Of a DNA stretch of 64,000 nt, positions 10,121 through 61,705 are shown one piece after another. A program made the position numbers and the translations under genes. The stretch is from an uncultured virus (IMG/VR IMGVR_UViG_3300037400_001251). Lineage: Duplodnaviria; Heunggongvirae; Uroviricota; Caudoviricetes. The notes under the pieces were generated by a model, which was not told the origin of the DNA, ran no database searches, and saw only the letters and a program-made list of their open reading frames with translations. The stretch lies in the IMG/VR virus record IMGVR_UViG_3300037400_001251; one strand, given 5' to 3'. The stretch's first letter is position 1; each line of letters starts with the position of its first letter.

Positions 10121-10187
10121 TAGGTACAATCGTTGTATAATTATAAAAGGCCAAAACTAATTTAAATAAGGAGCAAGTGTTCTTTAA

Positions 10188-11762
10188 ATGAAAATCAAGG
10201 TAGAAAAGAAAAGTAATATAACTATATATAATCCGGCAAATGAAGAAGAAGGAATTTCTTTTGTATTACTACAACCAGCTATACAGAATAAGTCAAAGAA
10301 ATTCGTTGAACATCTAAATACCATATTAATTGAAACTAAAGAAGAACAATGGTATTATAACATCTTGTATAAGTTTAAATCTACACAAGATCACGATGTA
10401 GTATATAATGAATTTCTAGATAAAGCATGTGAGATAGCTAGAAGATTTAGTGATATTAAAGATGAGCTTTATCCTACATTTGCTGATAAGAAAAAGAAAA
10501 CTGATAATAGTGTCTTTTTTGAAATTAGTGATATTAAAGAGATATACATGATTAATATCTTGGTTAAATTAATGGTGCCATTTACAGGTACTACATTAGT
10601 AGAAAATGACCAAGAAAGATTAACTAAGATGGCTTTTCAATATGTAATAGAAAAAGAAAAGCTTAATATCATTATAGAAAAGATACATGACTTAGTTAAT
10701 AGAAAACTCTTTAGATGTGTTGGTTTAGATCCTACAGTTTTAAATACAGTTAAGCTTAAATCAACTATGTCTGACCATGATTTCGTATTATATCTTTTTG
10801 ATTATATTATTAGTGCTATATTAGCCATATATGACTTAGAAAGAAATCCTATCACATTTATAGTTACTAGTGTTGATAGTATTATGACTTGGCACTTTAA
10901 AGGATTATATCAAAAGGCAATAGCTTATAAACCAACAGGTGAATTATTTGGTAAGACTATGGGTACTACTAATTTACCTGAAAAGATTATAGCTGGTATG
11001 ATATATGAGTATGTTCAAAAGACTGTTACTATTAGAAATAGAGAATTAGGTATCAGTATAGATGATGGTTATGAAAATATAGATAAGTATTTCTATACAT
11101 TCTTTACGATACCATTCTTTAAAAAGTTATTTGATATTAAAGATACTGATATAGAATACAATAACTTTGAATTAATCAATATACAGCTGTTCCTATATTA
11201 TACATTAAAAGATTTCATGGAAGAAACCAAAGAAGATATATTCCCTAGATTAAATAGGGAAGTAATGGTTAAAGATAAATCTAATACTGAAGAATTTAAA
11301 TTCTTAGAATTATTAAAGAGAGTTCCTGTTGGACAAACCAGTACTTATACATTATTAAAGCAAACTGTTTTTGAAAATAGTGAATTCTTAATAGATGACT
11401 TTACTGGTAATGCTAGAAACAATCATTCTTTACAGTATTCTGGTTTATATAAGATTGAATCATTACCAGAAATATTAACAAGTAATTTTAAATTCTATGG
11501 CATTAATAATATTATGATACTTAATAATTATTTAAAAGGTATAATGAATATTTTAATGAACCTAGTATTTAAGAAAGTATTCACATTTGATTTAACAACT
11601 GTAGATTTCAAATGTAGAAAATATGCTAAAGAATTAGAGCAGGAAATCTATCCAATGTTAATGATCATATTAGATAATAAGTTTGAATGGTATGACCATT
11701 ATAAGGAATGGGTTTTCAAGAAATACTGTAGTGAAAAGGCTACTATAACTAATCAACAATAA
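10188..11762 (+). CDS. possible promoter-specificity (sigma-like) subunit of non-virion RNAP
   Basis: 524-aa helical protein; size and segments such as SVFFEISDIKEIYMINILVKLMVPF and RNPITFIV recall phiKZ gp68/AR9 gp226 from memory; unverified. Confidence 0.35.
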   Translation: MKIKVEKKSNITIYNPANEEEGISFVLLQPAIQNKSKKFVEHLNTILIETKEEQWYYNILYKFKSTQDHDVVYNEFLDKACEIARRFSDIKDELYPTFADKKKKTDNSVFFEISDIKEIYMINILVKLMVPFTGTTLVENDQERLTKMAFQYVIEKEKLNIIIEKIHDLVNRKLFRCVGLDPTVLNTVKLKSTMSDHDFVLYLFDYIISAILAIYDLERNPITFIVTSVDSIMTWHFKGLYQKAIAYKPTGELFGKTMGTTNLPEKIIAGMIYEYVQKTVTIRNRELGISIDDGYENIDKYFYTFFTIPFFKKLFDIKDTDIEYNNFELINIQLFLYYTLKDFMEETKEDIFPRLNREVMVKDKSNTEEFKFLELLKRVPVGQTSTYTLLKQTVFENSEFLIDDFTGNARNNHSLQYSGLYKIESLPEILTSNFKFYGINNIMILNNYLKGIMNILMNLVFKKVFTFDLTTVDFKCRKYAKELEQEIYPMLMIILDNKFEWYDHYKEWVFKKYCSEKATITNQQ

Positions 11763-17707: not shown

Positions 17708-18269
17708 ACTTCCAAATGTACTTAATGTAAAGAAAGAACAGTTACTTAAAATAGTTATGTCATTCTTAAATGACTATGAAAACATTTTTAATGTTAATTT
17801 AATGACACCAGAGTCATTTATAAGAATGATGAAAGATATCTTAAATTATGATAATGACGTAGTATTCTATAGTCAGCATAGATTTGGAGTACAAAACTTA
17901 GTTACCTATAATGTTACATATACTGCAGATAACATTATATCTGTATCTGGTGAAAGTAGTAGTATTCAGTTCCCAGTTATTAGAGTACATAGAATCTGGG
18001 TTAATAATGAATATAAAGATGTCTTTCCAGATGAAAGAACTTTCTGTATAGTAGATAATACCATTTTAAAGAATATCTGTAGTCTATTTCTTATTAAAGG
18101 GCATGATGTTATAAATGAAGAAAATGGTAAGATTACAGAAAAATCTATACTAGAAAGATATCTTGATGGTGACCATCTTAAAGCTATAGAAAAATTTACT
18201 TGTGTAGTAGAACTACTTAATATATGTGAATCTCAAAAGAAAATAGAAAAGCTTAGTGGTCAAGATTAA
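17688..18269 (+). CDS. hypothetical protein (putative diverged family)
   Basis: IVDNTILKNIC motif; GAAAGGA RBS. Confidence 0.6.
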   Translation: MNQKTYELPNVLNVKKEQLLKIVMSFLNDYENIFNVNLMTPESFIRMMKDILNYDNDVVFYSQHRFGVQNLVTYNVTYTADNIISVSGESSSIQFPVIRVHRIWVNNEYKDVFPDERTFCIVDNTILKNICSLFLIKGHDVINEENGKITEKSILERYLDGDHLKAIEKFTCVVELLNICESQKKIEKLSGQD

Positions 18270-18284
18270 TCAAAAGTAACACTC

Positions 18285-18342
18285 CTCCTTTCTATCAAAG
18301 AAATACTATTGATTTTAAATTATCTTCAATGATAGAAAGGAG
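18285..18342 (+). promoter_or_regulatory. RBS-sequestering hairpin upstream of RNAP beta'-N (copy 1)
   Basis: Perfect 13-bp inverted repeat ctcctttctatca (18285-18297) / tgatagaaaggag (18330-18342) covering the SD. Confidence 0.7.
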
Positions 18343-18350
18343 AGCTATAT

Positions 18351-19571
18351 ATGCCGATAGTAACTTTAATGGATGTTGATAAGTTTGTAGATCCTAAAAA
18401 AGAAGTTACTTCTGCTAATGTATTAACGACTAAAGGTAAGTTTGACAATAATGGCTTATTTAGTGAAACTATCTTTGGTTTAAATAATAGTAAAGATAGA
18501 AGTAAAACTTATGGATATATAAGCTTACATACTAAGATATTACACCCATTCATGTATGAGGTATATAAGAAAATTGAAGAAAAGATTATCTTGTTAATTG
18601 AAGGTAATACTATGTATTATAATGAACAAGATAAATTATTATTTAAAGAACAAGATAAAAATAATTCTTTAAAAGAAATAAGTGGCTTCGATGGAGCTAT
18701 GTATGCTATACATAATGGTGTAAACTATAGAGGCGATACTGATGTAAGATATAAGATAATAGAAAAACTTCAAGAAAACTTAGATAATGGATTAGCCTTT
18801 ATAGATAAAGTAATTGTTATTCCTCCATCTTATAGACCTGTTCAATTAAGTGACCAAGGTGAATTAGTAAGTATGGATGACTTGAATACGTTATATATAC
18901 AATTAATTAATGAAACTAAAAAGATTCAAATGATTAATAGTAATAATGATGATACAGGTCAAATGAGTGACAATGCTTTAATTAGAAGACAAATTCAATA
19001 TCTAGTAAATGAAATATACCTAATAGGTAAAACTAAACCAGCTAAAAAGTTTGGTTCTATTAGAGGACAACTATTAGGTAAAAGAGTTGACTTCTCTGCC
19101 AGATCTGCAATTACAGCTGGGTATGATGTACCTGCTGGTTCTTTAGGTGTACCATATAGAATTATAGCTAATATCTCTCAACCATTATTAATTCATTATT
19201 TCTGTAAACAACTTGTTCAAGATAGTCCTGATTATAATAAGTTAATGGATAATCTTGAAAAGAATGAATTTGATAAAAGTAATAATGTCCTAGTTATTAC
19301 TAATTGGTTAAAAGATATAGCTGAGAATAAGTGTAAATTAGATAAAGATGAAGTAACTTGGATTAAAGAAAAATTCCAAGAAGCTTTAGGTGATAATATG
19401 GTACTAATGAAAAGAGACCCGGCTATACATAAAGGAAGCTGGCAAAGTTTTCATCCTATAGTTTGTGATGGTAATACGATGAGAGTACCCATTACTAGGA
19501 CAGGTTTTTTTAACGCAGATTTTGATGGCGATTCCGTATTATGTAAGATAAGAGTTAGAATTTCTGATTAA
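18351..19571 (+). CDS. rpoC: RNA polymerase beta' N-terminal half, copy 1 (probably virion RNAP), ending in a 12-aa split-intein N-fragment
   Basis: GLFSETIFG, VIPPSYRP, LLGKRVDFSARS, RDPAIH, NADFDGD, then SVLCKIRVRISD*; no N-terminal Zn-binding Cys motif. Confidence 0.9.
   Translation: MPIVTLMDVDKFVDPKKEVTSANVLTTKGKFDNNGLFSETIFGLNNSKDRSKTYGYISLHTKILHPFMYEVYKKIEEKIILLIEGNTMYYNEQDKLLFKEQDKNNSLKEISGFDGAMYAIHNGVNYRGDTDVRYKIIEKLQENLDNGLAFIDKVIVIPPSYRPVQLSDQGELVSMDDLNTLYIQLINETKKIQMINSNNDDTGQMSDNALIRRQIQYLVNEIYLIGKTKPAKKFGSIRGQLLGKRVDFSARSAITAGYDVPAGSLGVPYRIIANISQPLLIHYFCKQLVQDSPDYNKLMDNLEKNEFDKSNNVLVITNWLKDIAENKCKLDKDEVTWIKEKFQEALGDNMVLMKRDPAIHKGSWQSFHPIVCDGNTMRVPITRTGFFNADFDGDSVLCKIRVRISD
19533..19568 (+). 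mobile_element. split intein N-fragment IntN1 (12 aa, Ser1)
   Basis: SVLCKIRVRISD directly after NADFDGD; complements the intein lacking block A at 23521. Confidence 0.75.
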
Positions 19572-19576
19572 AAGAT

Positions 19577-19620
19577 AAGCCTAGGTAAAATCTATTTAAG
19601 ATTATATGCCTAGGCTTTAT
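19577..19620 (+). terminator. hairpin/terminator after beta'-N copy 1
   Basis: aagcctaggta / tgcctaggctt inverted repeat followed by T-rich tract. Confidence 0.6.
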
Positions 19621-19653
19621 CTATCTCAACTTTGAAAGGACAACAAGAAATGT

Positions 19654-20763
19654 ATGTTAATTACTTTAGAAGATGCCAATACAATATGTAGAAGTTTAAG
19701 ATGTTTGAATTCATATATAGTATCACACAATCTAACAGATGATTTAATTGTTAATAAGGATATAGTTGCTATATGGTTTAAGTTTAAACACTATTCATTA
19801 TTTTATGATAATAGTGAGTTATGTATATATAAGAGAAGAGAGGATAACTCTATATATAGTAGAAAGATATACATATCTAAAAAGTTTAGAAGATTTACTG
19901 ATAATGATTTTATCTTAGGTTATAGAATGGTAATAGATGGAGAAGATAAAGAGTATATCTTAGATTATGATGATAATTTTATCTATAACTTCATTAAGAT
20001 AATATGTGAACCTAATGATTATGATTTTGATAACGATGAATCTAATAGTAGTGAATTATTAGAAGAAACTTTCTTAGGTGTAACTCATAATATCTTATTA
20101 AAAATAACTAGATGTTTTACTACTATACATAAGATGATAGAGTTAGTTAATAAGATAAATGAATTATCTAAAGAGAAAGTAGATAATGCAGTTACTATAA
20201 CTAATGAGTTTATCCATGATTTAAGATATATCTATGACCATGTATTTAGTGTAGATAGTAAATTATTTAATGTTAAATCTATATGGGATAAGCATTGCTA
20301 TAAAGTATATGATGTAATAGATACTGGTTTAAGATATTATGGGTTTAAATTATGTAATAGAATAGACAATCTATATAATGTATATAACCCAATGAGAAAT
20401 GATTTAGTATTAATTCTAAATTTTCAATTCTATCAAAAGACTAGTTTATATATAGGACATAATTATCCTAGAACATTAGAATATGATACTAGAGTAAGTG
20501 TTTATGAAAATAGTATATGCTTAGGCGATGCTTTTATAGATTACTTAGATATAGATTTACCATTGTCAGTACTTGATTTAATAAGAAAAACATTTAACTT
20601 AGATGGAAACAATCAAGATGAAAAACTTAAAGAAACTCATGACTATTATATTAGGAATGATTCTATGAGTGACTCTGTATGGAAACCATTAGTTAATGTT
20701 AGAAAGTTTCTTTTGAAATATGATAAATCTACTAAGAAAAGAAAGGACGACAATAATGAATAG
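19654..20763 (+). CDS. hypothetical protein (putative diverged family)
   Basis: LDYDDNFIYNFIKII motif; AACTTTGAAAGGA leader. Confidence 0.6.
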   Translation: MLITLEDANTICRSLRCLNSYIVSHNLTDDLIVNKDIVAIWFKFKHYSLFYDNSELCIYKRREDNSIYSRKIYISKKFRRFTDNDFILGYRMVIDGEDKEYILDYDDNFIYNFIKIICEPNDYDFDNDESNSSELLEETFLGVTHNILLKITRCFTTIHKMIELVNKINELSKEKVDNAVTITNEFIHDLRYIYDHVFSVDSKLFNVKSIWDKHCYKVYDVIDTGLRYYGFKLCNRIDNLYNVYNPMRNDLVLILNFQFYQKTSLYIGHNYPRTLEYDTRVSVYENSICLGDAFIDYLDIDLPLSVLDLIRKTFNLDGNNQDEKLKETHDYYIRNDSMSDSVWKPLVNVRKFLLKYDKSTKKRKDDNNE

Positions 20764-22510
20764 AACTAAGATATCAAATAAGATAATACTAGATAAACTA
20801 ATAGATACATTTGATAGTTTAGCTAAAGCTTATGTAGTAGAATATGATGTATTAGAAGAAATATCTCAGATGTATTTATCTAGTTTAAACACTGATGAAG
20901 ATAGCTTTGAATGGTTTATAGATAGTAATAGGCAATATCTAGGATTAGGCACTAAAGTGTTAAGATACGAGGAAGAAAATGCTTATAGAAGGTTTGATGA
21001 AAAGAAATATTTGCCAGTGCCAGTGCCTACTAAAGTATATAGATTCTATCCTAATAGGCCTAAATTTGTAGCTGATCCATATGAGCCTAAATTTGGTGTA
21101 GAAGATCCAGAAAAAGATGTCTATGTAGAAGTATCAGCTGTAGATAGAAACTTTGCTAGAAAGATATCTGAAATATATTTTGGTAGACCAGATGTGTTTG
21201 AAACAGTTAAAGTATATAACAATGATTATTATAGCAATACATCTAAATATTATGAAGGTGCTATAGAAAAATATTTAGCTAGAGTTACTATTAAAGAACT
21301 ATATCCTGAATTAATTAAAGCTAGAGAAACAGGAGATAAATTATTTAAATTAACTAGCGATGAAGATGGTTCTTATCATATTAATGATAGGACAATAGAT
21401 ACTGTTTTTAAATTAGAAGAGTCTATATTTAAATGGTTAATACAGGCTAATCCTTTACTTAGAAAATTTCAAGAAATGTTATGGTATGTACTTAACGATG
21501 TATTTGGCATTCAGAAGCATGAACTAAATACTAAAGGAGATACAGACCTATACACCATGATAATTAGTGATGATAAAATGTTCATGACAATAGAAATTAA
21601 TTATACTGGCGTACGGTTTAAGAAAGAAAATATTGATGTATATAATCCTTTTAATAATCCAAGTGATATATCAGTATATAATGGTACTTTTAGCGGTGGT
21701 TATCTTAATAGTTGCCAAAATATAAGTTCTAGATATTTATCTAAGTATAAACCATCTATAATGTTGAAGATATATCATGGTGCTAAATCTTTAGATAATA
21801 GTACCACTATAGATATGTTTGATCCTGAGTGTGTTGTTAAGATATGTGATTTAATCAATGTATATTATAAGATAAATATAAACATTGAAAATAGAGATAA
21901 GGCTATAAGATTCTTAGAAAAAGAATGTAAGACATTTAAAGCTATTAAAGATCTTAAAGAATGTTGTAATATGATTATCTATAATAGTGATTACATTAAA
22001 TTAGATAAAAAGATTGATGTTAATCCTAGAAGTAATATAATGATTACTTTAGATGATAATGATATTATGGATATAGAAAATAATCAATTAAAGATTATCT
22101 TCAAAAAGAAAGTTCCTACTTATCATAACAATATAGATAATATCTATGTATGTGATAAACAAGGAAAAGTATTCTTAAGATGTAAATGTGATAGTATAGC
22201 TAATTATAAAGATGTCATTAGTTTCGCTAAGAATATTAAACCATACAATGTAGGTGATAGGTTTACCAAAACTAATACTAAGAAATATTTTAATGATAAT
22301 TATAAAGCGTATTTAATATCTAGTAGAATGACAATGCCTGGTATAGATATTGAAAACTTTGGTATTAAAACGCCTCCTATTAGTTATCAATTTATAAGGA
22401 GTATTAGTTATAATGATAAAACCAATAGCCTTGTTGAACAAGTCATTAGAGAGAATAGTCGTTATACAGAGCCAAGAGAACGGACTACTCTCGATGAAGA
22501 ATCCTATTAA
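20756..22510 (+). CDS. hypothetical protein
   Basis: Long ORF; start moved to the ATG after GAAAGGA. Confidence 0.6.
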   Translation: MNRTKISNKIILDKLIDTFDSLAKAYVVEYDVLEEISQMYLSSLNTDEDSFEWFIDSNRQYLGLGTKVLRYEEENAYRRFDEKKYLPVPVPTKVYRFYPNRPKFVADPYEPKFGVEDPEKDVYVEVSAVDRNFARKISEIYFGRPDVFETVKVYNNDYYSNTSKYYEGAIEKYLARVTIKELYPELIKARETGDKLFKLTSDEDGSYHINDRTIDTVFKLEESIFKWLIQANPLLRKFQEMLWYVLNDVFGIQKHELNTKGDTDLYTMIISDDKMFMTIEINYTGVRFKKENIDVYNPFNNPSDISVYNGTFSGGYLNSCQNISSRYLSKYKPSIMLKIYHGAKSLDNSTTIDMFDPECVVKICDLINVYYKININIENRDKAIRFLEKECKTFKAIKDLKECCNMIIYNSDYIKLDKKIDVNPRSNIMITLDDNDIMDIENNQLKIIFKKKVPTYHNNIDNIYVCDKQGKVFLRCKCDSIANYKDVISFAKNIKPYNVGDRFTKTNTKKYFNDNYKAYLISSRMTMPGIDIENFGIKTPPISYQFIRSISYNDKTNSLVEQVIRENSRYTEPRERTTLDEESY

Positions 22511-22511
22511 T

Positions 22512-22889
22512 ATGAAATATTACTATATAGATGAAGTAAGAACTAATTTAATAGGATTAGATGAAACTAAAAATTATTGTAGGCCTATGTTCTGGAATAG
22601 TGATGAAGTAACTGATAATAATAAGTTGGTTACCTTAAGAACTGTTACTACAGAAAGAGGAGAGAAGATTAAGATAGATAACCATTGGTCTTATAATATT
22701 ACTCCTGAACATAGGCATGCTTTTGGTAAAGATATTAATCTAAGGTTAAGAGTACTATTAGAAAGTAGTGTACTAACTTATTTAGATGATATCTTTACTA
22801 ATAAGGAATGGTTTCTAAATTATGTAAAAGAAAATAACATTCCACAGTATGGCTTTTATGAATACCTAAAAATGAAAGGGTTCAATTAA
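22512..22889 (+). CDS. hypothetical protein
   Basis: In-frame ATG just after the upstream stop (track start 22413). Confidence 0.5.
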   Translation: MKYYYIDEVRTNLIGLDETKNYCRPMFWNSDEVTDNNKLVTLRTVTTERGEKIKIDNHWSYNITPEHRHAFGKDINLRLRVLLESSVLTYLDDIFTNKEWFLNYVKENNIPQYGFYEYLKMKGFN

Positions 22890-22891
22890 CT

Positions 22892-23500
22892 ATGTTAGAT
22901 GAAGTAAGAGATAAATTAAATCAAGCTAAAGAATACTGCCTAAGCCAATGTAAAAAGAAAGATGAAACCACTGGTAAATGGGTAGTAGACACAGAAGCTC
23001 AAGATTTATATAAAGAAGCATTTTCTAAAATAGAAACTAATATCAGACAATATGGTGATAGTTTAAATTTTGATACTATGTTTCAAACCATTATTGTGAA
23101 CAATTCTATTATTACAGATGATAGTAGTACACCTATGTCTGACCAATGGAATCTATTTGGGGGAGAAACTTATACTAAGATTCTTAATACAGCTAAAGAA
23201 GATTTCTTTACAGGTTTAAGTAGTACTACTAAAGTTGATGAATTTGCTAATGATATATTACAATCAATAGGTAGTGATGCTTCGGCTAGAAGAAGTGATT
23301 TATCTAATAAGTTACAGCCTAAATTAAGAACTGCTTTAGATAGAACATTTAGTCCATTGAATCCTGAAAAGTTATCTGATGATGCTAAAAGGAAAATTAA
23401 TGAAAGAATTCAAAAGATATTCTATGATGGTAAGATTAAAGATATCATTCAAGATTATCATTTAGATGTGACTATACCATCATTTTTACCTATAGGTTAA
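22892..23500 (+). CDS. hypothetical protein
   Basis: 202-aa ORF directly upstream of beta'-C copy 1. Confidence 0.6.
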   Translation: MLDEVRDKLNQAKEYCLSQCKKKDETTGKWVVDTEAQDLYKEAFSKIETNIRQYGDSLNFDTMFQTIIVNNSIITDDSSTPMSDQWNLFGGETYTKILNTAKEDFFTGLSSTTKVDEFANDILQSIGSDASARRSDLSNKLQPKLRTALDRTFSPLNPEKLSDDAKRKINERIQKIFYDGKIKDIIQDYHLDVTIPSFLPIG

Positions 23501-23520
23501 ATAAGGAAAGAAGTTGAATA

Positions 23521-24003
23521 ATGCAAGAGTTAATATGTGAAATTAAAGATTTAAAAGATAGAGTTGACTTATTCAAATTTAAAAGTAGAAAAGATAATGT
23601 TGAACATTATAAACCTATTAAAGATATAACTATACAATCTATTAATATTGATAATGGTTATTGTTCTTGGAATAGGATTACTGATTATAGTGTTCATTAT
23701 AATCTAGAGATGTATTCTATATTTGATCCCTTAAATAGATTTGAACAATTCTATGTATCTAGTGACCATTCTTTAATCGCTTGGGACGATAAAGAAGAAT
23801 GTATTAGAAAGGTAACACCATTAGAAGCAAAATCAAATGAATTTCTAATGGCAATAATATATCATGAAGAAGAAGATGATTATATATTAATACCTTTTAC
23901 AGAATTATTAATCGAACTAGATAAAACTAAAACTACAGGATATGATTTTACTGTAGAAAATGATTTCACATTTAGTACATTTGATGGTTTCTTTGTCCAA
24001 GAT
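23521..24003 (+). mobile_element. split intein C-fragment IntC1 (161 aa, ends VQD; +1 Thr)
   Basis: Block B VSSDHSL, block F GYDFTVE, block G DGFFVQD/T; no block A. Confidence 0.85.
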
Positions 24004-27000
24004 ACGGCAGCTATCTATATGCCATTAAGTATGGAATCTCAACAAGATTGCAAGAAGATGTATATACCAACAGGTATGAATAATAGTACTCAATTATCAT
24101 TAGAAATTAAGCATGAACTTGTATTAAGTGCATACATAATTACTGATAATAGAAAACCTATGAAGCCTGATTATGGCATTGTTACTTATAAGCAATTAAG
24201 AGAAGATAATATGATTGGCATTAAAGATAATGTTCATTGCCATCAAACTTGTACTTTAAAGTTGCCTAATGGTAAATCAATTAAAACTACATTAGGTAGA
24301 GCATTATTCAATTCCTTATTGCCAGATGAGTTTTTAAAGAAGAGATATAATTGGTTTTTAGATAAACAGATAAACAAGAAGATTCTAAATAGCGATATAA
24401 TATACAATCTATCTTTAGAATACACTATGGAAACTATGGCAGATATAGTTGATAACATAACTAATTTCTTAAGAGTATATACTAGTGTTTACCCTGCTTC
24501 ATTATTATTAGATGAGTTTATGGAAAACACTGTATTTAAAGCTCTTAAAGAGAAGTATGAAAAAGCTAAGACTATGGATGAGAAACAAGCTATCATAGGT
24601 GAAATAGAATCTAAATTTAAGACAGGCATTAGTGACGTTATGCCAATGATAGATTATATAGTGGCATCTGGTTCAAGAGGTGATCCTAGTCAGTTAAGAC
24701 AAATGCTAGTTACTAAAGGTTTAATACAAGATGCACAAGGTAATTTAATATCTATAAATGATTGTTATGTAGATGGTATGAAGCCTGAAGGAGCATTTAT
24801 GGATGGCTATGGTTCTAGAAAAGGTATTATGGACAGAAGTAGATCTACATCTGTTACAGGTTATCTTACTAGAAAAATAGTTTATGCTTGTGCTAGTGTA
24901 TTGTTAGATCCTGATTTAAACGATTGTGGAACTAAAAGAACTATTCCTGTAAAGATCACTAAAGATAATGCCATGTTATTATATGGTAGATATATGATTG
25001 ATTCTAAAGGAAAGAAGATTCTATTCGGTCCAGACAATCAAGACCAATATATAGGTAAGACAATGGATTTAAGATCTCCTATATATTGTAAGTCTAAAAA
25101 GTTGTGTAAGACTTGTTATGGCGACTTAGCTAAATTTTATGGTACTCCTTTTGTAGGCATCTTAGCAGCTAATGCTTTGGGAGAACGCGGAAGTCAAGAA
25201 ATAATGAAGACCTTTCATTGCTTAGACGCCTCAACAGGTGTTTTCCTTGATACAAAGAACGGAAAGTCGCTTGAATGCCTAGGTTCATTGTTTAATAAAT
25301 TTGAAGATAAAAAAGAATTTACTTTAAATGGAACTCAAGAAGAAATAGATCTTAGTGATAAAGATATTAAAGCAGATAACAATGGCAAATGGACAAAGGT
25401 TCTTAGAATAATTAGGCACAAACGTAATCCAAATAGTTCTTTGATTTACTTAAGAACCAGCGATGGTCATGGTATTACTTTACAAGACAACCATCCTATA
25501 GCTATTCAAAACGATGAAGGTTATTCTTTTATAGAACCAAAAGATGTTAAGCACAAGAAAGATAAATTAATTATAAGCAATAATAATATATGGCAAGATA
25601 CAAAAAGATCTTGTTTTATAGATGCTTATATATTAGGATATTATCTTGGAGATGGTTGCATTAAATTTGGTAGTACCAATAAGAATAAGCCTGAAGACAA
25701 AAGACCTTTAGATGTTCTTATAGATTGTCCATTAAATACAAAATCTATACAGCATTCTAATTTAATGAATATGCTAAATGAATATGGTTATCGTAGTGTA
25801 TCAGATACAGATAAATGTATAATCATAAGAGACAATGATTTAGCTAAGAAGATTCATGAAGAAACTGGTAGATATTCTTATGCTAAGCATTTACCGATTG
25901 ATTATATATATTATAATGATGAAGATCTATGTAAGATATTATGTGGCTTAATAGACAGCGACGGTTGTGTTCAGTCTAAAGATGGTTATATAGCATTGGT
26001 AGTATTTGAAATGAGTAGTGGTGCTATAATTAATGCTATGTGTAACATATTAGATAAATTCGGAGTAAAATATAATGTATGTACTAAGCCTGGTGGTAAA
26101 ACTAAGATATTAGGTAAAGACACGTTTGCTAGAATGTCTTACGGATTAACATTATATCCTAAAACTATACACGAGGAAATATTTAAGTACTCTGTTAAAT
26201 TTCAAGGTAAACATTGTAGTCCTAAAATTATGACTAGACGTGTTCCTAATAATATAGTTACTTACATTGGCAAAGCAAGTCTAAAAGAAGAAACTGATTA
26301 TGTCTATGACTTAATGACTGAAGACCATCAGTTTAGTGCTAATGGAATATTAGTTCATAATACCGCAGGCGCTGTAAGTGTAGTTATACCTGATTTAATA
26401 CAACAAGCTTTGGACAACAATCCTAACTTAACTAAAGATCAAATGTCTAAATACTTTAAGCAAGATGGTTATCAATTAAAGTTTAATGTTAATCAAGAAG
26501 TTGAATTAACATTAAGACATGATGAATATCTTGATTCAGGTATGACTGAATTTACATTAGATCCAGAAAAATCTGGTATTATAAAAGATTCTACTATTGA
26601 AGGTACTAATATTCAGAGTGCTTTAGATCTTAAACCATTTGCAGGCCATGTCCAATTTGCTGATGGAACTAATTTAGAAATAATACTAGATGATGAAGTT
26701 TTCATACCTTATGAATTCTTTGAAACTAGAGAAGAGGGTAAGAATGCCGAAGGTATTAAATGTATTGTATTAAAAGGTAATACTAAAGATATTCCATTCT
26801 TATTCAGTACTGTTATAGCTAGTAAAGATTTGAATGTAGTAATGAAAACTATATTAGGTATTATTGAGAAAAAGAATATTATGAAATATCCTGAAGTGGC
26901 ATTTAATAAGTTAACTAAGATATATGGTGATGGTTTTAAAGTTGCATATAACCATATTGAAATCCTAATATCTCAGATATTTAGAAATAAGATGAAACCA

Positions 27001-27213
27001 GAATATCCTGCTAGATTAATCGAGCCTTATTCTGCTCAAGTATATGGTATTAAGTATATATCACATCTAGAAGGATTCTTATCTGGCATGTTATTTGAAA
27101 ATATGGGTAAATCATTACAGAATGGTTTTATTAATGATACTGTTACACATAATCCTATGGAACAATTACTTAGCGATGATTTTGATTTCTTAAGAGAAGA
27201 TAAGGAGGACTAG
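23521..27213 (+). CDS. rpoC: RNA polymerase beta' C-terminal half, copy 1, with N-terminal split-intein C-fragment and internal cis-intein
   Basis: Extein starts TAAIYMPLS (= QMAVHVPLS); TTLGR, SGSRG, SRKGIMDRSRSTSVTGYLTRK bridge helix, DCGT, RSPIYC, CKTCYG, GERGSQEIMKTFH/TAG trigger loop. Confidence 0.9.
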   Translation: MQELICEIKDLKDRVDLFKFKSRKDNVEHYKPIKDITIQSINIDNGYCSWNRITDYSVHYNLEMYSIFDPLNRFEQFYVSSDHSLIAWDDKEECIRKVTPLEAKSNEFLMAIIYHEEEDDYILIPFTELLIELDKTKTTGYDFTVENDFTFSTFDGFFVQDTAAIYMPLSMESQQDCKKMYIPTGMNNSTQLSLEIKHELVLSAYIITDNRKPMKPDYGIVTYKQLREDNMIGIKDNVHCHQTCTLKLPNGKSIKTTLGRALFNSLLPDEFLKKRYNWFLDKQINKKILNSDIIYNLSLEYTMETMADIVDNITNFLRVYTSVYPASLLLDEFMENTVFKALKEKYEKAKTMDEKQAIIGEIESKFKTGISDVMPMIDYIVASGSRGDPSQLRQMLVTKGLIQDAQGNLISINDCYVDGMKPEGAFMDGYGSRKGIMDRSRSTSVTGYLTRKIVYACASVLLDPDLNDCGTKRTIPVKITKDNAMLLYGRYMIDSKGKKILFGPDNQDQYIGKTMDLRSPIYCKSKKLCKTCYGDLAKFYGTPFVGILAANALGERGSQEIMKTFHCLDASTGVFLDTKNGKSLECLGSLFNKFEDKKEFTLNGTQEEIDLSDKDIKADNNGKWTKVLRIIRHKRNPNSSLIYLRTSDGHGITLQDNHPIAIQNDEGYSFIEPKDVKHKKDKLIISNNNIWQDTKRSCFIDAYILGYYLGDGCIKFGSTNKNKPEDKRPLDVLIDCPLNTKSIQHSNLMNMLNEYGYRSVSDTDKCIIIRDNDLAKKIHEETGRYSYAKHLPIDYIYYNDEDLCKILCGLIDSDGCVQSKDGYIALVVFEMSSGAIINAMCNILDKFGVKYNVCTKPGGKTKILGKDTFARMSYGLTLYPKTIHEEIFKYSVKFQGKHCSPKIMTRRVPNNIVTYIGKASLKEETDYVYDLMTEDHQFSANGILVHNTAGAVSVVIPDLIQQALDNNPNLTKDQMSKYFKQDGYQLKFNVNQEVELTLRHDEYLDSGMTEFTLDPEKSGIIKDSTIEGTNIQSALDLKPFAGHVQFADGTNLEIILDDEVFIPYEFFETREEGKNAEGIKCIVLKGNTKDIPFLFSTVIASKDLNVVMKTILGIIEKKNIMKYPEVAFNKLTKIYGDGFKVAYNHIEILISQIFRNKMKPEYPARLIEPYSAQVYGIKYISHLEGFLSGMLFENMGKSLQNGFINDTVTHNPMEQLLSDDFDFLREDKED
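25219..26361 (+). mobile_element. cis-intein with LAGLIDADG homing endonuclease (381 aa)
   Basis: CLDAST start, LQDNHP block B, ILGYYLGDG and LCGLIDSDG, VYDLMTEDHQFSANGILVHN/T end. Confidence 0.93.
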
Positions 27214-27951: not shown

Positions 27952-29721
27952 ATGTGTGGAATTTTTGGATGTTTTAAAAATTGTGTTTCTACTCTACCAT
28001 TAATAGACAATTATATAATGAATATTATGGTAGACAAAGCTAAGCTAAGAGGTGATGATGGCTTTGGCTTTACAGTTAATGGTTTACTGACATCTAGAAT
28101 AACTGATAGACATACTAGATATGAAGATCTTGTCAAAGATGGAAGAAGCGACTTTGATAGATATAATAGTAACACTGGTCATATAGATTGGGTACTGTTA
28201 AATTGTAGAGCTAAACCTGAAACAGAACCACCTACTAGTTTAACTAATCTTCAACCAATAATGACTAGAAGAATGGTTGACAATGGAATGGGCATAGGTT
28301 CTTATATAGTTCATAACGGAAGTTTATCTAATGACTTTGTAGAACAAGTCTATAGAGAATGTGATTATAAACCTGATACTAAAATAGATAGTGAAGCATT
28401 TACAGCTATATTATTAAATGCTTATTATCAATATACAGATAACTATAAAAATCTAAATCTTGTAGATTTCTTAAAGCAATATTTCAAAAGATATTTTAGT
28501 ATAGCTGATGGTGGCTTTGCCATGATAGGCAATCTTATATGGAGTGATATGACTAACATATTTGTCGTAGCATGTAAATATCAGCCATTGTATGAACTAG
28601 AAATTAACATTATAGGTGTAGGTAAATATTATTATCTGCATAGTGTAAAGGAGGCGCTAGAAGATGTTCAAGACTATATTACTGAAAACCTTATACGAGA
28701 TAATGAAATTGTTTTCACATTAAGAGAATTTCCGCCATATACATTTAAACTATATATAGATAGTCCATATCTAAAAGGATTTACTGAAGAAAGTAAATTT
28801 ACACCAACATATAGTTATCCTATAATAGATAACCCATGTCTAAGGAAAAAGATTCTTGTTAGTACTAGTGGTGGAATAGATAGTACTTGTTCTCTAATGA
28901 TGGCATATAACTTAACTAAAAATTATGATGAACAATATGATATAGAAGCTGTTCATTTTAAATATGGTCATAGAGGGCAAGAAGCTGAAGAACAAGCTAT
29001 TAGAAAAATTATAGATGAGGCTAATAAGAAAGAAGATATCAATATAACATTAAAGGTAGTTAATTTAGAATCTATTTATAAAGACTTCTTTAATGTTAAA
29101 AATTCTCAACTAATAGATAAAGAAGCTAATGTAGAAACAGGTTCTAACGATAAGATTAAAACTACTATAGCTTGGGTGCCAGTTAGGAATATGTTATTCC
29201 AAACATTAATGTATGGATTAGCTGAAACCTATATATTAGAACAAGGATATAAGGATGTCTATATAGTGGCAGGATGGAACCAATTATCTGAAGAAGGATT
29301 CTATCCAGATAATAGCACTAGGTTTACTAATGCTATGAGTTTAGCATCTAAGTTTGGTACATTAGTAGGACATAGAATTCATAACTGGAATATCTGTAGT
29401 AGATTATTGAAATCAGATGAATGGGCATTAGCTAAACTATATGACTTCTTAGATCTATATCAATATACAATAAGTTGTGACTGTCCAGTAAAAGATAAAG
29501 ATACTTATTATAACTGTAATGGACAATGTGGTTCAACTATATTAAGTCAGATAGCTAGTAAAAGATATATTGGTATAAAAGATCCAAGAGTATTTAAAAA
29601 GAATCCTAATATCGTAGTAGATAAACCTTTTGAATACTATGAGGAGGAACCAGTGGAATTAGATACTACAATTATAAAAGAAATCAAAAATAGGATACTA
29701 GATATTAATAGTTGTGACTAG
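27952..29721 (+). CDS. class II glutamine amidotransferase-QueC fusion (Gat-QueC)
   Basis: MCGIFG, RGDDG, HNG, IDSE (Ntn GATase); SGGIDS, WVPVRN, YPDNS, TISC (QueC). Confidence 0.85.
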   Translation: MCGIFGCFKNCVSTLPLIDNYIMNIMVDKAKLRGDDGFGFTVNGLLTSRITDRHTRYEDLVKDGRSDFDRYNSNTGHIDWVLLNCRAKPETEPPTSLTNLQPIMTRRMVDNGMGIGSYIVHNGSLSNDFVEQVYRECDYKPDTKIDSEAFTAILLNAYYQYTDNYKNLNLVDFLKQYFKRYFSIADGGFAMIGNLIWSDMTNIFVVACKYQPLYELEINIIGVGKYYYLHSVKEALEDVQDYITENLIRDNEIVFTLREFPPYTFKLYIDSPYLKGFTEESKFTPTYSYPIIDNPCLRKKILVSTSGGIDSTCSLMMAYNLTKNYDEQYDIEAVHFKYGHRGQEAEEQAIRKIIDEANKKEDINITLKVVNLESIYKDFFNVKNSQLIDKEANVETGSNDKIKTTIAWVPVRNMLFQTLMYGLAETYILEQGYKDVYIVAGWNQLSEEGFYPDNSTRFTNAMSLASKFGTLVGHRIHNWNICSRLLKSDEWALAKLYDFLDLYQYTISCDCPVKDKDTYYNCNGQCGSTILSQIASKRYIGIKDPRVFKKNPNIVVDKPFEYYEEEPVELDTTIIKEIKNRILDINSCD

Positions 29722-44535: not shown

Positions 44536-45753
44536 ATGAGTAACAATCAAAACATCAACATTAACCTAATTAACAATCTTTTCTCTTCTCTAACTAGTGG
44601 TAAAATCACTCTTAATTTTGGCGATACTGAAATTAATGTAGATATTACTGTTAATAGAAAAGGTAATATTGTTGAACAAGTAGCTAACAAGATTATAGAA
44701 GAAGTAGATAAAGATGAATCTCATAAGCATTTGCCTTTAAAGTATTATCCTATATCTGAAAATATAGATATGGATAGAGTGAATTATCTAGAAAAATTTC
44801 GTACTAAAGATTCAGATCCTATAATAGGTGAAGACAGCAAAGAATTAAAGAAAGAAGAAACTGGTTGGTTTAAAGGTGAATTTAGATATCGTGGTGAAAA
44901 CAGAACTAGTTTACATTATTATGAAGATGGTATAGCTGTTTGTGATACTGGTATAGTAAGTAGAAACCACATATTAAATGAAACCACAGTTAAGGTAGAT
45001 AATCCTGTAACTGAAGAATGTTGTAAGAAATGCTTATTAGTTTTAGCTAAAAGAAAAACAGCTACTTATAAAGAAATCAAACAATCTAAGAGTGTTAATG
45101 CCACTGGTTGGTATTTAAGAATGACTGATTCTAGAAAAGGTATCTATAAGCATTTCTATAAAGATGGTCATACTATTTGTAGAAATCATTGGTCATTAAC
45201 AACCATAGATAGAGAAACTAATCTAGATACTGATAAAGAGTATAAGATATGTAAAGTTTGTCTAGAAAAAGCCAAAGCACATACTAGAGCAGATCTATCT
45301 AATAAGAAAGTAATTAAAACTTTAGCACCCAAAGATGTTATAACACCAACAGAAATGTTAGAAAGATGGAATAAGAATCTAGTATTATTCGGAGAACCTG
45401 TTCCATTAAAAAGTAATTTAGAAACCGATGATGTTTATGCTGAAGCTGCTAAACGTATGTTAGTAGTTTATAGAAAACCTATCAATAATATTATGAGAAA
45501 ATTATCTTCTGATAATAGAATGACTGTTGATTCTACTACAGTTAAATTCTATTGTAAAAATAAGCTAGTAGAATTAACTGTTATTAGAAATGATAATAAG
45601 AGAAATAGTGAACTATCTATCAAGAAGATTAATATTACTGATAGAACATCACCTAACCAAAGAATTACTGGCACTGCCTATGATATGACATCTATGGTTA
45701 CTAGAGTTATTTTAGAAAGGAGTCGTAAGTTAAAAGATGAAGAAGAAGATTAA
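44536..45753 (+). CDS. protein with two tandem putative Zn-binding repeats
   Basis: TGW..HYYEDG..C..CKKC and TGW..HFYKDG..C..CKVC. Confidence 0.55.
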   Translation: MSNNQNININLINNLFSSLTSGKITLNFGDTEINVDITVNRKGNIVEQVANKIIEEVDKDESHKHLPLKYYPISENIDMDRVNYLEKFRTKDSDPIIGEDSKELKKEETGWFKGEFRYRGENRTSLHYYEDGIAVCDTGIVSRNHILNETTVKVDNPVTEECCKKCLLVLAKRKTATYKEIKQSKSVNATGWYLRMTDSRKGIYKHFYKDGHTICRNHWSLTTIDRETNLDTDKEYKICKVCLEKAKAHTRADLSNKKVIKTLAPKDVITPTEMLERWNKNLVLFGEPVPLKSNLETDDVYAEAAKRMLVVYRKPINNIMRKLSSDNRMTVDSTTVKFYCKNKLVELTVIRNDNKRNSELSIKKINITDRTSPNQRITGTAYDMTSMVTRVILERSRKLKDEEED

Positions 45754-47476
45754 AAAACTAGTTTTATGGGATTTTGAAGCTGTCAAAGGTGAAGCTGTTA
45801 CTTCTGATAAAATAGTAGAGAAGAAACGGTTCCACCCAGATGGCTTATATTCCGAAAGGATCTTTGGACCCATTAAGGATTATGTTTGTAGTTGTGGAAC
45901 ATTTAATCCTAATGGGGGTGTTTGTCCTGTCTGTGGTGTAAGATTTGGGCCTAGTAGTTTAAGAAGTACTACTTTTGCTCATATCAAATTACCAACAGAA
46001 GTGATTAATCCCTTGTTCATGTGGTCTTTAACATCTAGAACTAAGAATAAGAATTGTAAAATAGATGTTCCTTCATTAATAGAATATAAGTCATTTCTAT
46101 ATATTCCTAATGATAGACCTGAAGAAATAGTTCAATATGATAACTATAGATATAACTATCAAAAATTATCATATGAAAAGATGAAAGAATTAGAAGAACA
46201 AGGGTTAGATCCAAACACTTATGTATTAGATATTAATGGTGAATCTGTTTCTAATAATTTTAATAAGTTAACTGATGAAGAAAAAGCAGCTTTTAAAGAA
46301 GCTTATGAATCTAAGCATAAATTCATTGGTGCTCAAGCTATATTAAAATTAATAGATTGGCTAGAAGAGAATATAGCTAAAGATAAAGAATTTAATGTAG
46401 AAGAATACATTCGTAGAAAAGAATGGGATCTAATTATTAAATTTAAAGACAAAATTACCATTAATATTATACCTGTTATACCTCCAGATTTAAGACCTAT
46501 GATGTTTACTGGTAATAATATGAGTGTGGCTGAAACATTAACTAGATATTATACCACATTATTAACTAAAGTAAATATCATGAAAAATAAGACTAAGTTC
46601 ATTAAAGATGTTAGTTCATTAACTTGGAAGAATTATGAAGATCTACAAAAACAAGTTAATGAAATCTATAATGAAATTATGGATGTCTTTGGCGGTAAGA
46701 CTGGTATTATTAGAGCCAATATTTTAGGTAAAAGAATTGACTATTCAGGTAGAGCTGTAATAGCAATAGATCCATCTCTAAAATATAACGAATGTAGAGT
46801 TCCTTACCATATGGCATTAGAAGTCTATAAATATGAGTTTGCTAGATATCTTGCTAAGAAAGAAAACAAGACTATATTAGTAATACTCAAAGATATAGAA
46901 GAATCTTTAAAGTTAAGGGACTATCGTTTAATAGATGAATTAGAAGATTGGATTAAAGATAAGCCAACTCTATTGAATAGACAACCGACATTACATCAGT
47001 ATGGCATGTTAGCTTTCAATACTAAGCTTTCAAGTGACAGTACTTTGAAAATCAGCCCTACATGCACGTCTGCGTATAATGCTGATTTTGATGGGAAAAA
47101 TTCCTCAACCATGCCTATTTGCGACATATTGTAAATAGGTCTAAATATTCCCATCATTAAAGTTCGGAAAATCGGTGGAGCCTAAACTTGTAAAATCAAG
47201 CATGGTAATACCGAGATCCCATAGAAATCACTAGGGATTGTAACGCATAGGTAGTGAACGTTAAGAGAGTAATAATCTACCCACGAGTCCGGACCATATA
47301 CTATAATAATTATAGTTGGAAAATATATGCTGAGCTATACCGAAAGGTATAGAAGTAAGGGATAAAAAGCCTTTACGGTAACATAACTGGATAGTGCTTT
47401 AGGTGATGTAAAACTTAAAGTAAATGGTAAAATCATAGAATCTGCAATAGAAAATGTATTTAATATAGAAATCTAA
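45737..47476 (+). CDS. rpoC: RNA polymerase beta' N-terminal half, copy 2 (probably non-virion RNAP); join(45737..47095,47390..47476); ends in a 27-aa split-intein N-fragment
   Basis: GLYSERIFGP, CSCG..CPVC Zn domain, VIPPDLRP, LGKRIDYSGRAVI, LNRQPTLH, YNADFDG; exon 2 restores D and adds SALGDVKLKVNGKIIESAIENVFNIEI*. Confidence 0.88.
47096..47389 (+). ncRNA. ORF-less group I self-splicing intron (294 nt)
   Basis: IGS 47146-47156; P3 gttcgga/tccggac; P4 tcggt/accga; P6 atccc/gggat; P7 gcata/tatgc; P7.1 ggtag/ctacc; P9 ctatacc-GAAA-ggtatag; terminal G; removal restores NADFDGD in frame. Confidence 0.88.
47393..47473 (+). mobile_element. split intein N-fragment IntN2 (27 aa, Ser1)
   Basis: SALGDVKLKVNGKIIESAIENVFNIEI, block-A-like; complements the intein at 59735. 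Confidence 0.8.
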
Positions 47477-47482
47477 TTATAA

Positions 47483-59734: not shown

Positions 59735-60193
59735 TTGAAGCTTTTTAAAGAAGTTCGTAAAGATGTAAAAGAAAACGGTGTTGTTGTAACTCATTATGAA
59801 CCACAAGCTGATGTTACCATTATGTCAATGAATATTGAAAATGGTAAGTTTGAGGAAAAGAAGATAACTGATTTTAGTAAGCATGAAAATATTAAGATGT
59901 ATAAGTTTCATGATGCTATTGAAAGATTTAAAGATTTTTGGTTATCTGATAATCATAGTGCTATTGTTAGAGATAAGCAAACTAGTTTATATGGTAAAGT
60001 AACTCCTATGGATATTATATTAGATCCTAATAGATATGAACTAGTTCAAATGATAGGTAGTCCATTATCTAGAAGATTTATACCATGTGATCAAATAGAA
60101 GTTACATTAGATGAAAGTAAAACCATAGGATATGACTTTACAGTAGAAGATAATTATACTTTTACAACAGATGATGGAGTAGTTGTCCAAGAT
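59735..60193 (+). mobile_element. split intein C-fragment IntC2 (153 aa, ends VQD; +1 Ser)
   Basis: Block B LSDNHSA, block F GYDFTVE, block G DGVVVQD/S; clearly homologous to IntC1. Confidence 0.85.
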
Positions 60194-61705
60194 AGTATGG
60201 CTGCTTATTTTACTATGACACAAGAAGCTCAAGACAGTTTAATTAAGCATTGTCATATAGATAATAACTTGTTCACTAACTTTAATAATGAATTAACATT
60301 ATCCTTAGGACATGATATAGTTTATGGGATATTCTTATTAAGTAAAAGAAAACCATCAGCTTTGCCAGAACCATTATATAATTATATGGTAGAAAAGAAA
60401 TGGGATTGTATTAATAAGAAAAGATTAGCAGAGTTTCTTAACTATTATATTAGATTAGATAAAAAGAAACATGCTGATATCGTTAATAAGTTAGTTACAT
60501 TAGGATTCACTATATCTAGTAGGTATAGTCAAACTTTACTATCTTTCGATAATATTAAGAAGTCTATTATTCCTGCAGATAAAAGAAAAGCCTTGTTTGA
60601 TAAATACATGAACAAGGAAATAACTATGTATCAGTATGTTCAAGAAGAAGATAAAATGATAGATGACTTGAAAAAGATATGTCTATTTACAGATCTTATT
60701 GAATCAGGTTCAAGAGGTTCATGGCAACAAGCTAAACAGATGTTCTGTCAAAGAGGTTTCGTTACTAATTCGGCAGGTCATATCAAACCTATTCCTGTAT
60801 GGAAGAACTTAACTGAAGGATTAGATAGTAGATCTATGTTCTTATCATGCTATGGTGTTAGAAAAGGTTTAGCTGACGTAGCAGATAATACTGCTGTATC
60901 TGGTGCATTTACTAGAGGTCTTATATATCTAGGTTTAGAAGCTAGACAAAGTAGTTCTAAAAAGCCATGTAATACTACTAATTATTTAAGGTTTAAACCT
61001 GATAATGAAAAGATGGCATCCGCTCTAATTGGTAGATATATCTTTAATGATGATTTGTGTACTAGTATGACTAGAATTACATATGACAATTATAAAGATT
61101 TCATTGGACAAGAGTTAAGGTTAAGATCACCAATATTCTGTACTGAAAAAGAATATTGTCATTACTGTTGTCCACATAAAGAATTATCTGAATTAGAACC
61201 AGGTAAAAGTTACAATGTTGGTGTCGTCGCCGCAGGAGCATTGAGTGAACCACTCACACAGTTGACACTTAGACAATTCCATACGAGTGGCGCGGTCACA
61301 AAAATATCAGACGGAGAAGATGATGACCAAGACAAAGATATCACCTACGATATACGTGGTATTCAAAGAATGTTCTCGAAACCTGATTTTGATATATACA
61401 CTGTAAATGATTGGGTAAAGAAACTTTACTTATCATTCTTAGATAAGAAGAATATCAAACTAATGTTATATGAAGTATTAGCATCTTGTCTGATGTGGGT
61501 TAAACCTGAAGATGATGATGAACCTAATGTTCATTGGAGATTAGCCCAGGATAGAGAATTACTATTAGTAGGATATTCTAAAGTTCCTGAATATGAATCA
61601 TTCCTATTAGGTGCAGCATTTAAGAACTTTAAGAGAAAACTATTATCATCTATCGGTAAGGAAGTAGGTGGAAGTAGATTCGATAGAATGATAATAGGTA
61701 ACTAA
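59735..61705 (+). CDS. rpoC: RNA polymerase beta' C-terminal half, copy 2, with N-terminal split-intein C-fragment
   Basis: TTG start after AGGAGG; extein SMAAYFTMTQEAQ; SGSRGS, GVRKGLADVADNTAVSGAFTR, RSPIFC, SEPLTQLTLRQFHTSG. Confidence 0.9.
   Translation: MKLFKEVRKDVKENGVVVTHYEPQADVTIMSMNIENGKFEEKKITDFSKHENIKMYKFHDAIERFKDFWLSDNHSAIVRDKQTSLYGKVTPMDIILDPNRYELVQMIGSPLSRRFIPCDQIEVTLDESKTIGYDFTVEDNYTFTTDDGVVVQDSMAAYFTMTQEAQDSLIKHCHIDNNLFTNFNNELTLSLGHDIVYGIFLLSKRKPSALPEPLYNYMVEKKWDCINKKRLAEFLNYYIRLDKKKHADIVNKLVTLGFTISSRYSQTLLSFDNIKKSIIPADKRKALFDKYMNKEITMYQYVQEEDKMIDDLKKICLFTDLIESGSRGSWQQAKQMFCQRGFVTNSAGHIKPIPVWKNLTEGLDSRSMFLSCYGVRKGLADVADNTAVSGAFTRGLIYLGLEARQSSSKKPCNTTNYLRFKPDNEKMASALIGRYIFNDDLCTSMTRITYDNYKDFIGQELRLRSPIFCTEKEYCHYCCPHKELSELEPGKSYNVGVVAAGALSEPLTQLTLRQFHTSGAVTKISDGEDDDQDKDITYDIRGIQRMFSKPDFDIYTVNDWVKKLYLSFLDKKNIKLMLYEVLASCLMWVKPEDDDEPNVHWRLAQDRELLLVGYSKVPEYESFLLGAAFKNFKRKLLSSIGKEVGGSRFDRMIIGN

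Follow-up and report, generated by a model that had tools for sequence, protein, structure and literature searches.

In a 64,000-nucleotide (nt) stretch of DNA from an uncultured virus of the Caudoviricetes, a large rumen phage (IMG/VR record IMGVR_UViG_3300037400_001251; this whole stretch is hereafter called the window) the β′ subunit of a multisubunit RNA polymerase (RNAP) is encoded in two halves, and we predict, with a probability of roughly 80%, that a split intein composed of an N-terminal fragment of 12 amino acids (aa), IntN1, and a C-terminal fragment of 161 aa, IntC1, rejoins these halves by protein trans-splicing. The fold of IntC1, its homology to other inteins, the collinearity of both fragments with related inteins, the conservation of catalytic positions and a docking model all agree with and support a 12 + 161 aa split intein. 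From this we infer that the fragments associate in the cell, that the splicing chemistry takes place and that the β′ halves become ligated and are not just held together or cleaved. The window has a G+C content of 28%, carries phage-type genes on one strand and contains two sets of β′ pieces, the first of which is our main subject.

IntN1 and IntC1 are encoded in two separate genes, each fused to one extein. The open reading frame (ORF) 18351-19571(+) gives a 406-aa protein with a C-terminus that consists of NADFDGD and SVLCKIRVRISD, Ser395 being intein residue 1. A preliminary description of this DNA had counted only 12 codons between NADFDGD and the stop, and this count is correct (19533-19568, followed by TAA). 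The same description had placed a 161-aa IntC about 4 kb downstream, where we indeed find it at 23521-24003, with a HINT fold, as the first part of the 1230-aa ORF 23521-27213(+); these 161 residues end in FFVQD and are followed by TAAIYMPLS, which leads into Rpb1 domains 3-5. Since an in-frame TGA lies one codon 5′ of the ATG at 23521, the N-terminus of IntC1 cannot be located further upstream. The intein sits directly behind the catalytic DFDGD motif, and inteinless homologs of the host protein exist (P0010, P0029; P and L numbers denote related proteins and loci, respectively).

To characterise IntC1 we used an AlphaFold model that was built on nine relatives and had a predicted local distance difference test score (pLDDT) of 89 and a predicted template modelling score (pTM) of 0.80. 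A Foldseek search with this model yielded 23 matches at E ≤ 0.001, with 9hth at the top (E 1e-7, template modelling score 0.72), and all matches listed are inteins, bacterial intein-like (BIL) domains or Hedgehog autoprocessing domains. Structural alignment with VIA-align resulted in a best Z score of 15.7 (root mean square deviation, rmsd, 2.3 Å; 149 residues aligned), and Z was 8 or higher for 68 chains. The start of the model falls within residues 11-16 of the solved structure in 45 of the 50 VIA-align rows listed, and therefore IntC1, as modelled, is an intein (HINT) fold that is short of only about the first dozen residues (~11-15).

A clearly homologous intein is present at the identical DFDGD/T site in related loci and proteins, where it occurs in several states. 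It is contiguous in L083, where it contains a LAGLIDADG domain, ends in Tyr-Asp and interrupts a β′ that is itself split elsewhere, and in P0038, where a mini-intein ending in Gln-Asp lies within a fused β′ of 1146 aa. Canonically split versions are found in L001 (~118 + ~52 aa, adjacent genes) as well as in L081 and L082 (IntN ~110-118 aa, IntC ~52 aa), the latter two with a free-standing homing endonuclease gene (PHROG 3339/559) between the halves. P0010 and P0029 (fused, 1077 aa) lack the intein, DFDGD running directly into C-half sequence. In L002 the β′ N-half (9947-11152) ends in GGDFDGD and a 40-aa IntN-like tail; no C-half follows within 10 kb and none lies within the 21-kb locus, which indicates that the two halves are far apart. 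By sequence alignment the 12-aa tail plus the 161 aa are collinear with the contiguous (L083, P0038) and the canonically split inteins (L001, L081, L082). IntN1 aligns with the first 12 residues of longer IntN, for example SVSADIEVLTSD of L081, and Met1 of IntC1 aligns to the position right after those 12 residues; therefore nothing is missing or duplicated. As a separate observation, the β′ C-half of L081 (11117-14479) carries a further large insertion that ends in ...VHN/S; it occupies the same ...TFH site as the second intein of the window but is internally unlike it.

Scanning 1.84 billion representative proteins with IntC1 gave 111 proteins, which we sorted by match coordinates: 42 have a long IntC at the N-terminus, 19 a short canonical IntC at the N-terminus and 25 a long IntN at the C-terminus (fragments included), 19 are contiguous or internal, and 6 are unclear. 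Five of the 42 long-IntC proteins were omitted as truncated or interrupted, and the N-termini of the remaining 37 were aligned. About 30 of these 37 begin ~16 residues later than IntC1, at a Lys-Leu-Phe motif, and only P0021 and P0028 (both from the window clade), P0116 and P0132 start as early, with P0065 as a borderline case.

The preliminary description had named conservation of the tail in homologous β′ genes as one of its checks and lack of conservation as a refutation; the tail is kept, the apparent losses being best explained by introns (see below). Among 17 β′N1 relatives (15 in one alignment plus P0139 and P0145), six with 51-76% identity stop 10-13 aa after DFDGD. The first residue of the tail is Ser in five of them (P0003 with 11 aa, P0145, P0004, P0006, P0011) and Cys in the sixth (P0009, 10 aa), and all share an alternating hydrophobic/basic strand pattern. 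As six relatives keep a tail of 10-13 aa with the same pattern, the 12-aa tail is more than a chance sequence. In P0012, P0013 and P0014 IntN begins in the same way and is longer, P0010 has no intein and P0015 is split at another place. In the other six (P0001, P0002, P0005, P0007, P0008, P0139) the frame is left after DFDG, the third catalytic Asp is missing and the ends are unrelated strings of 1-14 residues; two of these, P0001 and P0139, belong to the same 90% cluster as the β′N1 protein of the window. Several studies of ruminant gut metagenomes contain runs (X2, X4, X6) with relatives of 18351-24100 at 85-97% likeness; none of the sequencing runs listed is of RNA, and joints with short sides (21-24 letters) or low depth were set aside. 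P0004 and P0023 both come from a contig of 8748 bases, possibly the same one. A metagenome scan, evaluated for the best 80 of 592 relatives, returned mostly bacterial β′; L001 and L002 were examined further and L004 by tblastn only, and the closer JGI relatives P0009, P0011, P0012 and P0013 were not among its results. An IMG/VR scan with a single β′N protein gave 0 relatives. The sole genome-contig locus returned, L084, is a region of a bacterial metagenome-assembled genome with neither RNAP nor intein and was rejected as a chance match.

On the side of IntC1, nine of ten β′C relatives begin with an IntC of ~160 aa and the tenth is an inteinless fusion. S80, D82, H83, H59, D142, Q160, D161 and T162 are invariant in the IntC1 alignments, and the family alignment contains no invariant cysteine. 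In block B (S80-S-D-H83) the residues S80, D82 and H83 are kept in 10/10 rows, and D142 of block F (G-Y-D-F-T-V-E) is also found in IntC2, the IntC of the second β′ pair, and in L001, L081 and L082. The +1 residue is Thr162 in all ten rows, Ser in the second pair and Cys in L081. Motif NX of cysteine-independent Ser1 inteins is described as a conserved His after Lys or Arg (His68 in PolB16; PMC10189870; here and below the cited articles are drawn on from the parts available to us); the residue preceding the invariant, NX-like His59 is Lys in P0028, IntC2, L082 and L001 and Val in the closest clade of the window.

We also modelled IntC1 with 14 extein residues together with the last 52 residues of β′N1 as two chains, each with its own alignment. 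The docking score (ipSAE) was 0.75 (0.75, 0.77 and 0.72 in the individual runs) as compared to 0.00 for the best of three controls, a prediction that may lean on solved split inteins; among solved complexes 116 of 157 attain the mark applied, as compared to 2 of 215 among mismatched pairs. The runs share at least 60% of their contacts, and confident contacts come only from residues 396-406, which is the whole 12-residue tail (395-406) except for Ser395. On IntC1 the modelled interface comprises residues 1-9 and 34-39, which form adjacent strands, as well as 75-78, 137-141 and 151-159 near blocks B, F and G. As a prediction, the docking model supports binding of IntN1 to IntC1.

By analogy with the second β′ pair of the window, the frame-breaking ends of six β′N1 relatives are best explained as read-through into mobile introns at the DFDG/D codon boundary. 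The β′N2 ORF (45737-47134) ends in NADFDG and KNSSTMPICDIL, and the latter shares 11 of its 12 residues with the aberrant end of P0001, a protein that is otherwise 97% identical to β′N1. The putative intron (47096-47389) folds far better than shuffled sequences (z -4.5), its start pairs with the exon end and its last base is G. Sequences with 69-83% identity to its 3′ half occur in 29 phage records, where one homolog is flanked by an endonuclease gene and by the second part of a DNA polymerase gene and another precedes a tape-measure gene, and compensatory changes occur at 19 of 37 predicted pairs in five sequences. The putative 5′ exon would end in a G paired to C, as opposed to the usual U.G of group I introns, no intron-like Rfam match was obtained for 47000-47520 and L085 even at E ≤ 10, and the window contains 0 further copies of this insert. 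Two relatives of β′N2, P0146 (99% identical) and P0147 (83%), have no insert and read through DFDGD into an IntN of 27-28 aa in one frame, and the frame of two others, P0148 and P0149, is broken after DFDG. For the first pair a contig of run X6 tracks β′N1 up to 19510 and then continues with a P0139-type end, of which 30 letters are seen. Presence or absence of an intron would thus be polymorphic among near-identical β′N1 genes; disruption of jumbo-phage polymerase genes by introns has been described (10.1101/2020.12.14.422802). The upkeep of a mini-exon that codes for nothing but Asp and IntN2 argues that the short IntN is needed.

From its sequence, the pair of 27 and 153 aa is a second, paralogous split intein at the same site, with the break after the first helix. 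As an observation on relatives of β′N2, P0113 and P0158 contain a complete intein C-terminus (...VIVQD) that is followed by a short IntN-like segment and a stop, which looks like a contiguous intein directly in front of a split one.

According to the mechanism we propose for the first pair, an intein would have invaded the β′ gene exactly behind the catalytic NADFDGD loop, and the gene would later have broken inside the intein after codon 12. The products, β′N1-IntN1 (406 aa) and IntC1-β′C1 (1230 aa), would be made apart, from genes separated by 3.95 kb, and IntN1, probably an amphipathic peptide able to form a β-hairpin, would insert into IntC1, supplying the first strands and the Ser1 nucleophile. 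Class 1 splicing with oxyester chemistry would start with an N-O acyl shift at Ser1 and proceed via transfer to Thr+1 and cyclisation of the terminal Asp161 to an O-N shift, by which Asp394 would become joined to Thr162. The second, ordinary intein (25219-26361) would leave in cis. Mature β′ would then have 394 + 688 = 1082 aa, which is near the 1077 aa of the inteinless P0029.

Several observations weigh against this reading. The called ORFs of six of the 17 β′N1 relatives are without tail, and a tail-coding mini-exon is assumed there by analogy only. Block G has neither the penultimate His nor the terminal Asn, Gln160-Asp161 being invariant in the family, and inteins with Gln-Asp in place of His-Asn can be slow. 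As Asp or Gln can, however, stand in for the terminal Asn and still cyclise (PMC4031507), this ending lowers the likelihood of class 1 membership but does not exclude it. In PolB16 OarG, the closest characterised analogue, splicing is slow and C-cleavage amounts to up to 25% (PMC13014065). At the level of sequence searches, Pfam flagged no match over residues 1-161 of IntC1, and phmmer against PDB sequences returned two chance-level matches and no intein. Finally, the pLDDT of the β′N1 partner in the docking model is 41-43, i.e. below 50, so that its own fold is uncertain, and the good docking score may partly reflect likeness, as solved complexes of split inteins exist.

The alternative that survives best, although we regard it as improbable, is that degenerate intein pieces only hold the β′ halves together non-covalently, or that IntC1 just cleaves itself, so that no ligation occurs and the enzyme stays split. 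Jumbo-phage β and β′ are commonly encoded in pieces (10.1101/2020.12.14.422802), L083 splits β′ elsewhere, the C-terminal His-Asn is replaced by Gln-Asp and C-cleavage is substantial in PolB16 (PMC13014065), all of which would fit such a split enzyme. However, a nucleophile is found at position 1 of every tail (Ser in five and Cys in one of the six short ones, Ser in all longer IntN), and the Thr, Cys or Ser at +1, the His of block B and the Asp of block F are all kept; mere association is unlikely because it would not need conserved nucleophiles and catalytic residues. Moreover, the contiguous alleles with an Asp ending (Tyr-Asp in L083, Gln-Asp in P0038) must splice to give a working β′, and a 161-aa domain beside the Mg-binding loop would be hard to square with catalysis.

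We consider it very improbable that this β′ copy is a decaying pseudogene in which the 12 codons are a chance read-out after a disruptive insertion of ~4 kb and that the phage relies on its other polymerase. The four unrelated ORFs between the halves and the second β′ pair in the window are in line with decay, but both halves are intact ORFs, the short tail and the long IntC are kept in relatives from other samples down to 51% identity, the tail pattern is conserved, and the alignment of the tail plus IntC1 with unsplit alleles is exactly collinear. That the split results from misassembly or a sequencing error (chimeric contig, false stop), as the metagenomic origin might suggest, is hardly credible. 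Both protein architectures recur in independent relatives from other runs and databases, and a Logan assembly made separately for the probable source run, which stems from the same reads and is thus not independent, matches both junctions with 0 differences (18351-21182 and 21177-24100).

Taking the split-intein reading as a basis, IntN1/IntC1 belongs to the known atypically split (S1-site) inteins. The preliminary description had stated that most natural split inteins have a long IntN and a short IntC and that atypical ones have an IntN of roughly 15-30 aa, and had supposed that the fragment in the window may be among the shortest natural ones. Both agree with the available text of PMC13014065 (March 2026), in which natural atypical IntN range from 15 to 37 aa and that of PolB16, with 15 aa, is termed 'record-short', as compared to 12 aa here. 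PolB16 OarG from a sheep gut metagenome (8cpn/8cpo) resembles the pair of the window in being a natural S1 split with a very short IntN and a long IntC (15 + 168 aa), in combining Ser1 with a hydroxyl residue at +1 (oxyester chemistry) and in its ruminant gut, phage-like source (PMC10189870). Residue 1 of IntC1 falls on residue 16 of 8cpn, where the natural IntC of PolB16 starts (Z 10.7, rmsd 2.6 Å, 128 residues aligned; PMC10189870), and the structural alignment has 21% identity. The two differ in the host gene (β′ versus PolB), in the length of IntN (12 aa, 10-13 in relatives, versus 15), in the +1 residue (Thr versus Ser) and in the ending, which is Gln-Asp here and the usual Asn in PolB16, crystallised as N183A (PMC10189870); PolB16 is biochemically characterised, whereas IntC1 is known from sequence and model.

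VidaL, with a 16-aa IntN, is likewise a natural S1 split, and AceL-TerL and TerL CAT (IntN of 25-30 aa) are broken after the first helix like the second pair of the window with its 27-aa IntN2; all three are likened by description only, are cysteine-dependent and reside in other host genes (PMC13014065). In the Ssp DnaB mini-intein/M86 an S1 split has been engineered that has the same break and, with 11 aa, a nearly equal IntN length; residue 1 of IntC1 corresponds to chain residue 12 in both 1mi8 and 6frh. That split is artificial, cysteine-dependent and laboratory-evolved, unlike the natural split of the window (PMC13014065). The best structural match to IntC1, the cysteine-less split Aes123 PolB1 (CL) intein (9hth), is a Ser-type phage intein with a canonical natural split, of which a 26-aa short-IntN version was engineered (PMC13014065). 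Literature searches found no description of an intein at the DFDGD site of β′; one of them returned a single paper, on the PolB intein of phage MIJ3.

Dassa et al. (2009) reportedly described 'fractured genes', in which the halves of a split intein flank a free-standing homing endonuclease gene. L081 and L082 show exactly this arrangement for the same β′ intein allele. In the window, by contrast, the halves are parted by four ORFs without endonuclease signature, and the break lies at residue 12 and not at the endonuclease insertion point. Notable here are the shortest natural IntN seen, the Asp ending, a new host site and a family that comprises every split state.

The coordinates of both β′ pairs are compiled in the following table.

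Features of the first and second β′ pairs in the window
Feature	Position	Strand	Details
β′ N-half (N-extein 1)	18351..19532	+	394 aa, terminus is the catalytic NADFDGD loop; Pfam RNA_pol_Rpb1_2 (E 9.8e-19) and Rpb1_1; alignment of relatives
IntN1	19533..19571	+	12 codons, SVLCKIRVRISD (19533-19568), then TAA (19569-19571)
Hairpin and 19-mer module	19577..19640	+	9-bp arms, CCTAGG core; 19-mer TATCTCAACTTTGAAAGGA directly 5′ of the next gene
Four intervening ORFs	19654..23500	+	369, 596, 158 and 202 aa; same strand
IntC1	23521..24003	+	161 aa; N2-B (S80..H83), NX-like His59, block F (D142), block G (Q160-D161)
β′ C-half, first part (C-extein 1)	24004..25218	+	starts with Thr+1; Pfam Rpb1_3, Rpb1_4, Rpb1_5
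Second, contiguous intein in β′ C-half	25219..26361	+	381 aa (aa 567-947), Cys1 ... His-Asn/Thr, LAGLIDADG endonuclease; Pfam Intein_splicing, LAGLIDADG_3
β′ C-half, last part	26362..27213	+	Pfam Rpb1_5 spans 419-1156
Second β′ N-half (paralog), exon 1	45737..47095	+	ends ...NADFDG; Pfam Rpb1_1/_2
Structured insert	47096..47389	+	294 nt, read as self-splicing intron
Mini-exon (putative)	47390..47476	+	third Asp of DFDGD, IntN2 (27 aa) and stop, in frame
IntC2	59735..60193	+	153 aa, ends VVQD/Ser+1; 44% identity with IntC1, beginning 16 residues further into the fold
Second β′ C-half (C-extein 2)	60194..61705	+	sequence alignment

Immediately 3′ of the IntN1 stop, where the preliminary description had noted a hairpin and no intron-like sequence, there is a perfect 9-bp inverted repeat (19577-19585/19609-19617, loop of 23 nt), and Rfam at gathering thresholds gave 0 matches across the whole window. 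As a scan of 18200-23700 for canonical terminators matched 0 sites, we do not name the hairpin a terminator. Homologous modules with CCTAGG-arm hairpins follow both IntN stops (19577-19640 and 47483-47540), with the 19-mer TATCTCAACTTTGAAAGGA as an exact copy before the next ATG, and the 3′ part recurs in looser form ahead of three further genes (33329, 44508, 52399). Because of the TTG inside such modules ORF finders call false 'MKG...' starts (44518, 47532, 52409).

At the thresholds applied, neither Pfam nor PHROG assigned a family to the four ORFs between the halves, and they have no homolog in L001, L002 or L081-L083. Three other runs yielded contigs that carry them at 85-97% likeness, with contigs that bridge into IntC1. 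The 381-aa LAGLIDADG intein of β′C1, at a ...TFH/T site, is missing from eight of nine close relatives (844-851 aa) and likewise present in P0021 (1159 aa). Elsewhere in the window, 8156-10120 and 27952-29721 have Pfam matches to PTPS and QueC, the last being fused to an N-terminal domain that starts with MCGIFG; we take such sets in phages to serve 7-deazaguanine DNA modification.

Short IntN pieces are accessible by peptide synthesis and can carry probes into proteins by trans-splicing. According to the available part of PMC13014065, PolB16 (15 aa) supplies the only natural cysteine-independent short IntN, which is slow, and there is a lack of other natural candidates. An IntN of 12 aa (10-13 in relatives) with Ser1/Thr+1 chemistry would therefore be attractive for peptide-based protein labelling, if active, and dozens of natural variants of one allele, either unbroken or broken at three places, provide a series for asking what reassembly of the HINT fold needs. 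The second pair raises the idea that different break points keep the halves of two polymerases from cross-splicing. It is conceivable, though doubtful, that the two split inteins, which share the catalytic-loop site and break differently (12 + 161 after strand 2, 27 + 153 after helix 1), are mutually incompatible, each ligating its own partner only, and that the IntN of 10-13 aa are fully active, cysteine-independent, shorter than the 15-aa record and usable as synthetic peptide tags.

The DFDGD site of β′ may thus be a target for mobile introns as well as for inteins and, if the split-intein reading is true, assembly of the catalytic loop of a phage RNAP would depend on protein trans-splicing.

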